64,000 nt of DNA, from assembly GCF_044324875.1 (NCBI RefSeq), contig NZ_CP172185.1; one strand, written 5' to 3'. Below the pieces are notes generated by a model. That model saw only the letters and a program-made list of their open reading frames with translations. It ran no database searches and had not been told where the DNA came from. Source of the DNA: Escherichia coli. GTDB lineage: Bacteria; Pseudomonadota; Gammaproteobacteria; Enterobacterales; Enterobacteriaceae. Each line of letters starts with the position of its first letter. The stretch's first letter is position 1. This document shows positions 3,187 to 10,534 of this stretch, in pieces. Made by a program: the position numbers and the translations under genes.

Positions 3187-4734
3187 TTAGTGCGCACCAC
3201 CTCCGCCGCCACCTGCGCCAAATGGCGGTTTAGCAAACCACACCAGCCCCAGCAGGACGAGGAATATCCCGGCTGACATCCAGAAGATCTCATTGGCGGA
3301 AATAATCAGCCCCTGATTGGTGATCTGCTGGGCAATCCAGCCTGATGCCTGCTGTTGCGTCATCCCAAGCCCTTCCAGTTGACTATACATCGCCTGGGCA
3401 TTCGGGTTGAACGGGTTTACCGACTCAGTCAACTGCGCATGGTGCATCGACTCGCGGTTGGTCCACATGGTGGTGGTAATGGATGTGCCGATAGACCCCG
3501 CCAGCGTTCGCGTAAAGTTAGAGAGGCTCGATGCCGCCGCCAGTCGTTCCGGTGGCAAACCAGACAGCGTAATGGTGGTCAGCGGCATAAAGAAGCAGGC
3601 CACCGCAAACCCCTGGATAAACTGCGGCCAGGCCGACGCGCCAAAATCCATACCCGGTTCAAAGGTATAGGCACGCCAGTAGAAGCAGACGGCATACATA
3701 ATAAAGCTGAAGGTTACCAGCCGCCGCATATCCAGTTTATGCGCGAAGCGGCCGATAATCGGCGACAGGATCACCGGAATAATTCCTACCGGCGCAGAGG
3801 CCAGACCTGCCCACGTTGCCGTGTAACCGTAGACCTCCTGCAACAACTGCGGCAGCAGAACAATAGCGCCGAAGTAGAGCATATACGCGAGGCTGATACA
3901 CAAACAGCCGATGGTGAAGTTGCGCGACTTAAACAACGACAGATCGACTATCGGGTTATCGTCGGTCAGCTCCCAGACAATCAGGAAGCAGATAGCCACC
4001 ACTGCCACCACGGTAAGGATGATAATTTCCTGTGATGAAAACCAGTCCAGCTCTTTACCGCGGTCGAGCATAATCTGCAGGCTACCGATACCAATAACCA
4101 GCAGTGCCAGCCCCACGGCATCAATCCGCCGCCGTTCGGTGCGGGTTTCACGTCCGCGCAGGGTTTGCAGTGTCATCAACACCACCGCCACGCCAATCGG
4201 TACGTTGATGAAGAATATCCAGCCCCAGTGGTAATTGTCACTGATATACCCGCCGAGGATCGGGCCGCAAATTGGCGCAACAATCACCGTCATCGACCAC
4301 AACGCCAGCGCGATCGAGCGTTTGGCTGGCGGGTAGTTATTCAGCAATAGACTTTGCGAAAGCGGAATTAACGGCCCGGCGACAATCCCCTGAATCACGC
4401 GGAAGAAGATCAGCATATTCAGGCTGCTGGAGACACCACACGCCCACGACGCAATAGCAAAGGCGATGGTGGACCAGAGGAACAATTTCACTTCCCCGAC
4501 GCGCTTTGCCAGCCAGCCGGTAAGCGGGATCGAGATGGCATTCGCCACCCCGAAAGAAGTGATTACCCACGTTCCCTGGCTGAGCGATGAGCCCAGATTC
4601 CCGGCGATAGTGGGGATCGCCACGTTAGCAATGGTGGAGTCCAGCACCTGCATGAATGTCGCCAGTGACAGCGCAATCGTCATAATGACCAGTTGCGCGC
4701 CTTCCAGCGGTTTTTGCTGTTGCATCACACGCAC
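3187..4734 (-). CDS. emrB: Multidrug efflux MFS transporter EmrB (14-TMS DHA2 family)
   Basis: 515-aa hydrophobic ORF recognised as EmrB, immediately downstream of emrA. Confidence 0.93.
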   Translation of the reverse strand: MRVMQQQKPLEGAQLVIMTIALSLATFMQVLDSTIANVAIPTIAGNLGSSLSQGTWVITSFGVANAISIPLTGWLAKRVGEVKLFLWSTIAFAIASWACGVSSSLNMLIFFRVIQGIVAGPLIPLSQSLLLNNYPPAKRSIALALWSMTVIVAPICGPILGGYISDNYHWGWIFFINVPIGVAVVLMTLQTLRGRETRTERRRIDAVGLALLVIGIGSLQIMLDRGKELDWFSSQEIIILTVVAVVAICFLIVWELTDDNPIVDLSLFKSRNFTIGCLCISLAYMLYFGAIVLLPQLLQEVYGYTATWAGLASAPVGIIPVILSPIIGRFAHKLDMRRLVTFSFIMYAVCFYWRAYTFEPGMDFGASAWPQFIQGFAVACFFMPLTTITLSGLPPERLAAASSLSNFTRTLAGSIGTSITTTMWTNRESMHHAQLTESVNPFNPNAQAMYSQLEGLGMTQQQASGWIAQQITNQGLIISANEIFWMSAGIFLVLLGLVWFAKPPFGAGGGGGGAH

Positions 4735-6661: not shown

Positions 6662-6997
6662 TTATATAATCGCCATCACTTTCCAGGCGAGCCCGTAGGC
6701 CAGCGCACTAAGCAGTGTTGGGATGATAATGCTGCGTGTTTTATAGAAACTGGCACCCAGTACCGCGAAGCCGACCAGCGTGGGCACGAAACGGCGTGTA
6801 TCGTGCATCACTTCTGGTGCGGTAGAGACAACCAGCAGAGCGCATATCGAGGCGATGCCAATGGTGTCGAGCAATATGCCTATCGCGCCACGTTTGGTTG
6901 GGCGGGCATTACCCACACGCAGGCGCAGCGGCAAATAGCGGAAGCAATAATTCGCCGCGCCAACCAGTAACCCAAGCAGCAGAACCTCATAGCTCAT
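6662..6997 (-). CDS. ygaH: AzlD-like branched-chain amino acid exporter small subunit
   Basis: 111-aa hydrophobic ORF overlapping the ygaZ stop by 11 nt. Confidence 0.85.
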
Positions 6998-7724
6998 CGG
7001 GCGCTCCTTGCCAGAATGCCTGGATTAACGCAGTGAGGCAGCCACAGACAATGCCTGCCAGAATGGCGACGGGAATAGAAAATAGCGTTACGCCTGCAAG
7101 GGCACCAACTAACGCTGCGGTAACGCAAAGAGATTGTTTGCGCTGGAAAGAGGCGAGCAGGAAACTCATAAAGAGTGCCGGAAGCATAAAACCTAATGCT
7201 GCTTCAACGGCGGGATATCCTTGCAGCAAGCCGCTGCCGGAGAATGCCCCTATTACCGTACCAAATACCCACGATGACCATGAACTGAAGGCAATGCCGA
7301 TCATCCAGTTCTCGCTCCAGCGGCGATTATTGCGTACCAGTTTTGCGGTTGCGGCGGCAAAAACCTCATCCGTCAGGCCAAATGCCCACAGGGCGGTTTT
7401 CGATTTTTGCAGACGCTGAATAATACGGCTACGCAGTGACGGGCCATACAAAACATGGCGAACATCCATTGCCATGACGGTCAGTGCAGCAACCCACAAA
7501 CTACTCCCGGCTGCCAGCATCGCGGTAATGACGAACTGGCTCGCGCCTGCATAAATGATGCAGGAGAAAAAAACGCTTTCGAGAGGAGAGAATCCCAGAC
7601 GGGTCGCATTCAGACCGAACGCAAAGGCCACCGGAATATAACTAATAACAATCGGTAAACTGTCTTTGCATCCTTCCATGAAGGTCGCCGAACCAGGAGC
7701 AGGCTGTGGAGTAGGGCTTTCCAT
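6987..7724 (-). CDS. ygaZ: AzlC-like exporter large subunit
   Basis: 245-aa polytopic membrane ORF paired with ygaH. Confidence 0.85.
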
Positions 7725-7847
7725 AGAGTGTACGCTTAACGATTGTTAATATGATAAATAGACTGAATGAATATCTTAACCTTATCAGACTGATGGGCTT
7801 CTTAACACCCTTATAAGTGTAAAGCCACGAAAACGGTTGCTGATTGC

Positions 7848-9032
7848 TTAATTTGCAGCTTCCTGACGATGAAAACCTCGCCACCAGACCAGTAAGTTAA
7901 CCAGGGCAATCGTCGCGCCAGCCAGACAAACGCCAGCCCAACCGCCATGTTGCCAGGCTGAGGCTGAAATTAGCGAACCGGCGGCACCGCCAATAAAGTA
8001 GCTGGTCATGTAACCTGCGGTCAGGCGATTACGCGCATCAGGGTGTATTCGATAAATTACCGTCTGGTTAGTGATATGCACGCCCTGCACGGTGAGATCC
8101 AGCACCAGGATGCCGATAATCAAGGCCAGTACGGAAGTGTGGCCAAACCAGATCGCCAGCCATGAAAGTAATAGCAGCAGCAGACCGAAAGTAGTGGTGT
8201 GGTGCGATTTACCCTTATCGGCAAAACCGCCCGCCGGACGAGCACCCAACGCTCCGGCAGCTCCCGCAAGTCCAAACAGACCAATTACACCATCGCTGTA
8301 GTTAAAAGGTGGAGCGGCAAGCAAAAAGGCCATTGAGGTCCAGAGAATGCTGAAGTTGGCAAAGGTGAGGCAGCCCAGCAACGCACGGGTGCGCAGGATC
8401 TTATCGCTGATAAACATGCTGAAAACGGAACCCAACAACTGTGGGTAGTTGAGGTGGGTTTCTGATTTCATTTGTGGCAGACCACGCCATAATGCCAGCG
8501 CCATCAGTGCCATTAACACCGAGGCAACCCAAAAGACGGTGCGCCAGCCGCCGAGGTTTGCCAACAATCCGGCAACGGTCCGTGCGAGTAAGATCCCCAG
8601 CAGCAGGCCGCTCATAATGGTGCCAACCACTTTGCCGCGTTTGTCCGGTGAAGCCAGCGTCGCTGCCAGCGGAACCAGAATTTGTGCCACGACCGAGAAT
8701 AAACCGGTTAATGCCGTACCGAGGATCATCATCGCCAGCGACTGACTGCTGGCAGTGATTAACATTCCACCGGCTGCCAGTAAGGTCATGGTGACAATCA
8801 GGCGGCGGCGTTCAAACATATCACCGAGAGGAACAAGAAATAGCAGACCAGCGGCATAGCCTAATTGCGCGGCGGTAACAATAAAGCCTGCCGAACTGGC
8901 GGAAAGGGAAAAGTTACGCGCGATGGTGTCGAGCAACGGCTGGGCGTAATAGTTACTGGCTACCGCCAGACCGGTGGCGATAGACATCAGCACGATCAGC
9001 GCCGGGCTAAGCTCATGATTAGGTTTAGTCAT
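7848..9032 (-). CDS. ygaY: MFS transporter, intact (YgaY-like)
   Basis: 394-aa ORF with about 12 hydrophobic segments, between proX and ygaZ; uninterrupted here. Confidence 0.8.
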   Translation of the reverse strand: MTKPNHELSPALIVLMSIATGLAVASNYYAQPLLDTIARNFSLSASSAGFIVTAAQLGYAAGLLFLVPLGDMFERRRLIVTMTLLAAGGMLITASSQSLAMMILGTALTGLFSVVAQILVPLAATLASPDKRGKVVGTIMSGLLLGILLARTVAGLLANLGGWRTVFWVASVLMALMALALWRGLPQMKSETHLNYPQLLGSVFSMFISDKILRTRALLGCLTFANFSILWTSMAFLLAAPPFNYSDGVIGLFGLAGAAGALGARPAGGFADKGKSHHTTTFGLLLLLLSWLAIWFGHTSVLALIIGILVLDLTVQGVHITNQTVIYRIHPDARNRLTAGYMTSYFIGGAAGSLISASAWQHGGWAGVCLAGATIALVNLLVWWRGFHRQEAAN

Positions 9033-9484
9033 TATTTTTGTTCATCAGGTGATGATTAAGCTGGAAATCAATAATAGCGGATGTTGATGAATGTGGGGCG
9101 AAAGATAGATTGTTAAAATGTGCGGGTAATGGGGAGAGGGTATTTGAAGGTGAAATATGCCACTAAGGCAAATGTTACGTTCACTTCCAGACTATAGCTA
9201 CTTTGTCACTATTTTGCTGGTGAACGTGCCAGGGTGGCTCAGTCGCCACCACCCTGGCGACCCAGGCTTTTGGCACAAAATCGCCGCTACGCGGTACATT
9301 CGACTTATTTCTTACGGCTATCGGGTACGGGCGCGAGGTAACATCCCTGTAAGACGCGCCCTCGCCGCGCATCCCTGCGCGTCGCCCCGGCCTTCAGAAA
9401 ACGTCTCATCGATTTTCAGCCGGATTAAAACCATCGCTGCAATTGTTTTACTCACATGAGCATTATCTGCGCGGTTATCAATAT

Positions 9485-10477
9485 TTACTTCTGCGCTGCC
9501 AGCGCCTCATTCACCCAGCCATCGAACTGCTGCTGGTGGGCTTTGATCCAGCCATCAACGTGGCCCTGAATATCGCCTTCTGAGGCTTTGCCGTCATGCA
9601 TAATGGCGTTCTGGGCGTTAATATCTGCCACTGGTAACTGCATAATGGCAAACAGTTTCGCTGCTGCCGGGTTTTTCTCGGCCCAGGCTTTGTTGGCAAC
9701 GATATGCATGGTACTGACCGGGAAGCCGTAATTCGCGCCATTCGGCAGTTTGGTATCGGCATTTTTATCGCCCGGCAGTGCGGAGAACGGCACCTGCAAC
9801 CAGACCACATCTTTCCCCGGTTTCAGTTCGTTACTCACCCAGTACGGCGTCCAGGTGTAGTAAAACACCGGCTTACCCTCTTTGTAACGACTGATGGTGT
9901 CAGCCATCATCGCTGCGTAGTTCCCCTGATTATGCGTCACGGTATTGGTCAGTCCATACGCGGCAAGCTGGTGGTTGATCGCACCTTCGCAGCCCCAGCC
10001 AGGGTTACAGCCAGTCAAATCCGCTTTACCGTCGCCGTTGGTATCGAACAGTTTGGCGATCTTCGGATCTTTCAGTTGCGCGATGTTGGTGATTTTGTAC
10101 TGGTCGGCAGTTTTCTTATCGATCAGGTAACCCTGTGCCGCGCCGTTAACAAATACTCCTTCACGATAAAATTTCTTATCGCCACCGGCAGCTTCGTACA
10201 TGTTGTCATGCAGTGGCGTCCAGTTCACTGCGGTGAAGGTTGCATCGCCGGAAGCAAGCGAGGTGTAGCCAACGTTGTAATCCACTTCGCTGGGTTTATT
10301 GACGGTATAACCTAATTTCTCCAGCGCGCGGCTGACCAGCAGCGTCTGGAAAGTTTCTTCGGTGATGGTGCTCTGAACCGGATTAACAGTAATGCCTTTG
10401 CCCGGCAGGTCGGCAGCAAAAGTTTGTGTAGAGATAAGCGTGGCAAACGCTGTCGCAAAAAGTACGCTATGTCGCAT
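9485..10477 (-). CDS. proX: Glycine betaine/proline ABC transporter periplasmic binding protein
   Basis: ORF 9485..10519; start set at [21 protein letters not shown] (signal peptide), 330 aa; recognised as ProX. Confidence 0.93.
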
Positions 10478-10534
10478 TGTTATTCCTTTTTTTGGCAGGG
10501 TGATAATGCCCGGCGTCACCGGGCAAGTGCAGAG

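Follow-up and report, generated by a model that had tools for sequence, protein, structure and literature searches.

The closest described counterpart of the gene studied here is ygaY of Escherichia coli K-12 (b2681; formerly ygaX/ygaY; P76628; TCDB 2.A.1.36.3), which is the same gene at the same locus. In NC_000913.3 it is annotated as a 1178-bp pseudogene lying between proX and ygaZ. PGAP labels it "MFS transporter, frameshifted" in another MG1655 record, and older literature lists its pieces as ygaXY (PMC3946193). The initial annotation of our sequence had stated that the K-12 locus is broken, and these records agree with that statement. The gene has been termed "cryptic", with in-frame stops (Nat Commun 2023). 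In K-12, a ygaY deletion has served as a neutral control (bioRxiv 10.1101/072470) and the locus as a place for chromosomal integration (PMC11731478). The literature that could be searched yielded no experiment on an intact YgaY.

PMC5417439 quotes the TCDB entry 2.A.1.36.3 as "YgaY of Escherichia coli" (P76628) and places it in the YnfM family, which TCDB calls the Acriflavin-sensitivity family (2.A.1.36). YnfM itself (b1596; TCDB 2.A.1.36.1) is a protein of 417 amino acids, and its gene adjoins that of a LysR-type regulator, ynfL. It is reported to be a proton-coupled, CCCP-sensitive glutarate exporter in BL21(DE3), where deletion of ynfM alone abolished detectable extracellular glutarate (PMC12622518). 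Among proteins of known structure, the best matches to a model of YgaY are the DHA1 drug:proton antiporters SotB (6kkk/6kkl), MdfA (4zp0) and NorA (8ttf).

Locus and gene neighbours

We analysed a stretch of 64,000 nucleotides of E. coli DNA, which we call the window. A six-frame list of open reading frames (ORFs) contains an uninterrupted ORF at 7848..9032 on the minus strand, with an ATG start, 394 codons for amino acids and no internal stop. The coordinates and length are exactly those of the initial annotation, which had left out the strand. The ORF list, a Pfam match, an AlphaFold2 (AF2) model and the identity to K-12 together describe this coding sequence as an intact ygaY, encoding a 394-aa transporter of the major facilitator superfamily (MFS) with 12 transmembrane (TM) helices. 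A chance ORF was rejected by the Pfam score, by conservation and by the ratio of synonymous to non-synonymous changes.

The neighbours were assigned from the ORF list and from the annotation of orthologous loci, and they are those named earlier, proVWX upstream and ygaZH downstream. Upstream lies proX (ORF 9485..10519, minus strand), the last gene of proVWX. ProX is annotated as 330 aa, so its real start lies inside this ORF. The ORFs of proW and proV follow further upstream on the same strand as ygaY. Downstream on the minus strand lie ygaZ (6987..7724), which encodes the AzlC-type subunit of an L-valine exporter, and then ygaH (6662-6997), with emrR and emrA beyond it on the same strand. The spacer between proX and ygaY is 452 bp in the window (9033-9484). 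It is different from, and longer than, the K-12 spacer of 191 bp.

The ygaY region is 96.3% identical to that of K-12 at the nucleotide level, and the interval from proX to ygaZ is 96-99% identical in 5412 of 5426 complete E. coli genomes. With this position between proX and ygaZ and this high nucleotide identity to E. coli b2681, the ORF is the orthologue of ygaY. The gene order is the same in Citrobacter (nrdEF-proVWX-MFS-AzlC-AzlD-MarR-EmrA-EmrB). Positions 1-25000 of the window, which include gshA, emrB, nrdE, gabP and gabT, match 5403 of the 5426 complete E. coli chromosomes at a coverage of at least 80%. The segment that bears ygaY is core E. coli chromosome.

The alleles of the window are far from those of sequenced complete genomes. 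The best identity over the 25 kb of positions 1-25000 is 98.8%. For the 1.7 kb around ygaY (7600-9300), AST215 is the only one of 5418 matching genomes that reaches 99% or more. Either the lineage of the window is scarce among complete genomes or the segment is a mosaic.

The K-12 lesion and the state of ygaY in other genomes

Aligned globally, the window gene and its K-12 counterpart differ by 44 substitutions and one gap of 7 bp, which follows gene nucleotide 257. Pairwise alignment had been proposed in the initial annotation as the way to locate the K-12 lesion, and this gap is the lesion. It corresponds to 8769..8775 of the window (minus strand), gene nucleotides 258-264 in codons 86-88, and falls in the helix at residues 75-94 of the AF2 model, which is TM3. 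Nothing else disrupts the frame of K-12 in the alignment. The window copy is uninterrupted, whereas K-12, without these 7 bp, runs into a stop after 88 codons ("LLAAC*"); the other 305 codons, from Met90 onward, are in a different frame. K-12 thus does not carry the same intact ORF, the finding that would have spoken against the earlier claim. Outside the lesion, the translated sequence of K-12 differs from that of the window at a single residue, T81S.

When a frame-restored K-12 sequence was used as the query, many natural isolates were found to carry an uninterrupted 1185-bp gene with 99.9% identity to it. For example, ygaY of strain ML35 differs from that of K-12 at the lesion site and nowhere else. 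There ML35 reads CTG GCG GCA TGC GGC ATG, a perfect tandem repeat of 7 bp, G(CGGCATG)(CGGCATG), and deletion of 7 bp in any register of this repeat gives exactly the K-12 sequence. At least 1656 genomes carry a related allele, (GGCGGCA)x2. The tandem repeat is absent from the window allele, which reads GCA GCC GGT GGA ATG (GCAGCCGGTGGAATG). The K-12 pseudogene is best explained, on these sequence comparisons, by slipped-strand loss of one unit of the 7-bp repeat (GCGGCAT x2). The lesion, in TM3, truncates the K-12 protein after 88 residues. It is recent, as shown by the lack of any other change relative to ML35. Loss of a repeat unit is a routine type of mutation. The one new detail here is the likely origin of the K-12 lesion in this tandem repeat, which close, phylogroup-A-like relatives carry intact; we did not find it stated in the literature searched.

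An ancestor rebuilt with GGCAGGC, as in the 98203 allele, was tried and rejected: a 43-mer of it had no exact match in any genome, and it was one nucleotide off the closest natural alleles. The ML35 sequence corrects the ancestral lesion site to GCGGCATGCGGCATG. The alleles closest to K-12 have Cys (TGC) at residue 88, where the window and the other alleles read have Gly. With this Cys88 change (ML35 gene nucleotide 262), the periodic stretch of the 7-bp tandem repeat grows from 14 to 15 bases, at the site that was later deleted in K-12.

The distribution of the deletion was followed with a 36-mer across the K-12 junction, the seeds of which match only where the deletion is present. It was found in 353 of the 5426 complete E. 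coli genomes. Among the 40 junction matches listed were named K-12 derivatives (MG1655, BW2952, DH1, TG1, C600/EC600, J53, MC4100, XL10 and ER strains). Further laboratory strains, evolved strains and a small number of isolates with unstated ancestry, from pig, human and mouse gut, were also among these 40. The pseudogene is a derived state specific to the K-12 lineage.

The state of the gene outside K-12 was judged from six annotated genes, 40 sampled matches and the sizes of protein clusters. Five genomes, AST215 (the closest to the window), PNUSAE014970, the urine isolate 536, 98203 and ML35, each have a 394-aa coding sequence without a pseudogene flag, and our own translations agree with the annotation. 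For BL21(DE3), annotation alone gives a 1185-bp coding sequence, also without a pseudogene flag. Forty evenly spaced matches to the ygaY region were then sampled; 36 had no net change in length, three were of the K-12 type (7 bp shorter) and one, PCP06021, had a large deletion. In a protein search, full-length proteins, mostly of 394 aa, were found in E. coli, Shigella, E. fergusonii, E. marmotae, E. albertii and Citrobacter, the Citrobacter homologue having 93% amino-acid identity. The exact protein of the window is already public as "MFS transporter [Escherichia coli]", from 337 contigs, and the 90% cluster that holds it has 3984 member sequences.

The codons of the window and K-12 genes differ by 42 synonymous changes and one non-synonymous change (T81S). 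This ratio indicates strong purifying selection on ygaY. As judged from these sequences, the intact form of ygaY is ancestral and the usual one, from which K-12 deviates. It had been proposed earlier that this strain retains the gene; the gene is indeed intact here, but to be intact is the rule in E. coli, with K-12 as the departure from it. Both the pseudogene status of K-12 and the intact orthologues are already in public annotation, and the result is correct but ordinary and matters very little. Its main consequence is for work in K-12: that strain is atypical at ygaY, and therefore studies in it, such as those with the Keio collection, transporter screens and neutral integration, are silent on the function of YgaY.

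PCP06021 (NZ_CM129877.1; positions 3696-4350 of the locus examined), a natural seawater isolate from the Galapagos, has lost most of ygaY and all of ygaZ by a deletion. A 159-bp remnant of ygaY abuts a shortened ygaH, an independent loss at this locus outside K-12.

Protein family, fold and motifs

The protein belongs to the Pfam family PF07690 (MFS_1), scoring 140.4 bits where the gathering threshold is 33.4 (E = 8.6e-41). About 12 hydrophobic segments had been noticed in the initial annotation, and a crude Kyte-Doolittle scan is consistent with that number. The AF2 model, built with 61 diverse homologues as input (mean pLDDT 95.2, pTM 0.93), has 12 TM helices in two six-helix bundles, the topology of the MFS. 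The predicted helices span residues 10-40, 45-71, 75-94, 99-126, 132-161 and 163-184 in the N-terminal half, followed by a loop helix at 196-209; those of the C-terminal half are at 211-239, 247-272, 276-298, 301-329 and 331-393; in this final span DSSP joined two helices into one.

Two sequence motifs of MFS transporters were compared. In the loop between TM2 and TM3, at the place of motif A, G-x3-D-(R/K)-x-G-R-(R/K), the window reads V67-P-L-G-D71-M-F-E-R75-R76-R77. Here D71, R75 and R76 agree with the motif; three positions depart from it, namely the flanking G, the R/K that follows D and the central G. Across the 61 homologues, both G70 and D71 reach at least 90% conservation. The DHA1 antiporter motif C (G-x8-G-x3-G-P-x2-G-G) is degenerate in TM5, whose sequence is G137-TIMSGLLL-G146-ILL-A150-R151-TV-A154-G155: it retains the spacing and three of the glycines, but A150-R151 replaces G-P. 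R151 is conserved in at least 90% of the homologues. D312, N322 and the invariant R336 are other conserved polar residues of the membrane domain in the same 61 sequences.

None of the NCBIfam equivalog models gave a name to the protein, all 25 matches being far below their cut-offs. The full-length alignments were with models of efflux-type MFS proteins (sugar efflux PRK03545 and Cmx/CmrA), also below cut-offs. The best partial match was with TIGR00895, for aromatic acid/H+ symport; it covers residues 20-187 only, with 78.5 bits against a cut-off of 418.55. The curated DHA1 models were missed as well: Bcr/CflA (TIGR00710) with 50.8 against 200.9 bits, EmrD with 38.2 against 479, and Cmx with 52.5 against 400.

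By sequence, matches in the PDB were weak and limited to GlcP and SotB. By structure, the model aligned over about 380-390 columns with inward-facing MFS conformations of SotB (TM-score 0.84-0.85), MdfA (0.83) and NorA (about 0.80), although sequence identity to these three proteins is 15-18% and YgaY has A-R where their motif C has G-P. The modelled YgaY thus resembles DHA1 antiporters in fold but fails the sequence criteria of DHA1.

The nearest studied relative is YnfM. K-12 YnfM aligns with YgaY end to end by BLASTP (26% identity, E = 5e-21, residues 1-390), both are 12-TM MFS proteins and both carry the variant G-x8-G-x3-(G/A)-R in TM5. Together with the TCDB listing, as quoted in PMC5417439, this alignment places YgaY in the YnfM family. 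The two differ in that ygaY has no adjacent regulator gene, in length, and in amino-acid sequence at an identity of just 26%.

The neighbours of more distant homologues with 50-57% identity (P0138, P0139, P0140 and P0143) were unrelated to one another and gave no clue to the substrate. They include genes for an AraC protein and an FMN-binding protein, a reductase of the old-yellow-enzyme type, RNase T and a 5'-nucleotidase. The top homology match (P0001, from an ENA metagenome contig) is the longest member of the family, with 596 aa, 1091 bits and 73% identity. A partial tandem duplication or an artefact of assembly may account for its length.

Taken together, the ORF is very probably the intact ancestral allele of ygaY, a core gene of Escherichia and Citrobacter that lies between proVWX and ygaZH-emrRAB and encodes a 12-helix secondary transporter of the YnfM family with a DHA1-like fold. 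YgaY is an orphan but well-conserved MFS transporter of natural E. coli.

Expression, direction of transport and the proX-ygaY spacer

The upstream region of ygaY has two parts. The proximal 93 bp (9033..9125, minus strand) are conserved in the window, AST215 and K-12, as seen in an alignment. Inspection of these 93 bp revealed no clear Shine-Dalgarno sequence, and a consensus sigma-70 scan of the minus strand of the whole spacer (9033-9484) revealed no promoter-like site. A scan for sigma-70 promoters and terminators upstream of ygaY gave nothing on the strand of the gene, and no more total matches than in shuffled sequence. The earlier statement that the gene has its own upstream region therefore holds for the 452 bp that separate it from proX, but a promoter-like site was not found there. 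On the other side of the gene, the consensus scan detected a promoter-like TTAAGA-17-TATCAT in the spacer between ygaY and ygaZ (7751..7779, minus strand). A constitutive RpoD promoter, TTAAGA-17-TATAAT, has been listed at the same position in K-12 (PMC3946193), and the -10 hexamer of the window is one base off it. This site probably serves ygaZH.

In K-12, ygaY RNA is detectable (Nat Commun 2023). Its level increases after an osmotic upshift, an effect that the authors ascribe to transcription reading through from proVWX. Contact with H-NS has been reported for the ygaY region of K-12, with a peak and a bridge in some studies.

An intact YgaY would be produced and would work by alternating access on the proton gradient. 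It would most likely export a small organic solute in a proton-coupled manner, an assignment to which we lean only slightly. Fold and family are what the model and the alignments demonstrate; direction and coupling we infer from them. Import is possible but doubtful, and the remaining weight falls on a gene that is not expressed or on some other activity. As an importer, YgaY would be a solute:H+ symporter; its position downstream of proVWX might suggest uptake of, e.g., an osmoprotectant or organic acid. The TIGR00895 symporters as the best partial match, the degenerate antiporter motif C and the rise of K-12 ygaY RNA after osmotic shock are consistent with this. The full-length matches in sequence and structure, however, are of the efflux type (SotB, MdfA, NorA, Cmx and Bcr), YnfM, the only studied member of the TCDB family, exports, and the rise in RNA was attributed to read-through. 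A further proposal is that YgaY is a partner in the osmotic response, transcribed by read-through from proVWX after an upshift and moving either a by-product of osmoadaptation or some compatible solute. In Escherichia and Citrobacter alike, ygaY follows proX directly on the same strand, and it has no obvious promoter of its own. We regard this role as very unlikely; if it were true, K-12 laboratory strains would lack one step of the wild-type response through a 7-bp slippage. Another reading is that YgaY duplicates the dicarboxylate or glutarate export of YnfM, with which it shares TCDB family 2.A.1.36, a full-length alignment and the Arg in place of Pro in the TM5 motif. Identity between the two is just 26%, though, and BL21(DE3) has an intact 1185-bp ygaY, yet deletion of its ynfM alone abolished detectable extracellular glutarate (PMC12622518). 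This result suggests, indirectly, that YgaY does not simply substitute for YnfM in BL21(DE3), and duplication of its function is quite unlikely.

The word "functional" in the initial annotation raises another question, whether ygaY is intact but effectively cryptic: poorly transcribed, bound by H-NS, provided with a weak ribosome-binding site and contributing little. This near-cryptic state, the main rival reading, would explain why K-12 lost the gene without obvious cost. The scan and inspection of the upstream region, without a promoter-like site on the minus strand or a clear Shine-Dalgarno sequence, fit such a state, as do the H-NS peak and bridge reported at K-12 ygaY and the use of K-12 deletions as neutral controls and of the locus as a routine integration site. 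A gene that was never expressed, however, would not stay as clean as 42 synonymous changes against one non-synonymous change. In addition, the frame has been kept in Escherichia species and in Citrobacter, at 93% amino-acid identity, and transcripts are detectable in K-12. We therefore consider a cryptic ygaY unlikely. Intactness and purifying selection favour a functional transporter, even though the gene has no obvious promoter of its own.

The distal part of the spacer is a separate matter. About 360 bp of the window (9126-9484) replace a REP-like sequence in the 191-bp spacer of K-12, and this variant is present at the proX-ygaY locus in about 547 of the 5426 E. coli genomes. Within it, about 210 bp (9216-9424) form a core with unannotated copies of about 83% identity elsewhere, in about 1430 further genomes; in an ST131 strain, for example, the copy lies between asmA and yegH. 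This element is unrelated to the ORF and is more unusual than ygaY itself.

When positions 7600-9600 were compared with Rfam, the sole match was TwoAYGGAY RNA at 9286-9414 on the minus strand. The match is below threshold: the gathering score is 43, and the window scores 28.2 bits and the ST131 copy 31.5. The strand of the element is that of proX and ygaY, so that it would occupy either the 3' region of proX or the 5' region of ygaY. The element has two hairpins with CAGGGAUG loops. In the stem of the first hairpin, several compensatory changes distinguish the window from the ST131 copy, with CGCGC/GCGCG in the former and CCCAC/GTGGG in the latter.
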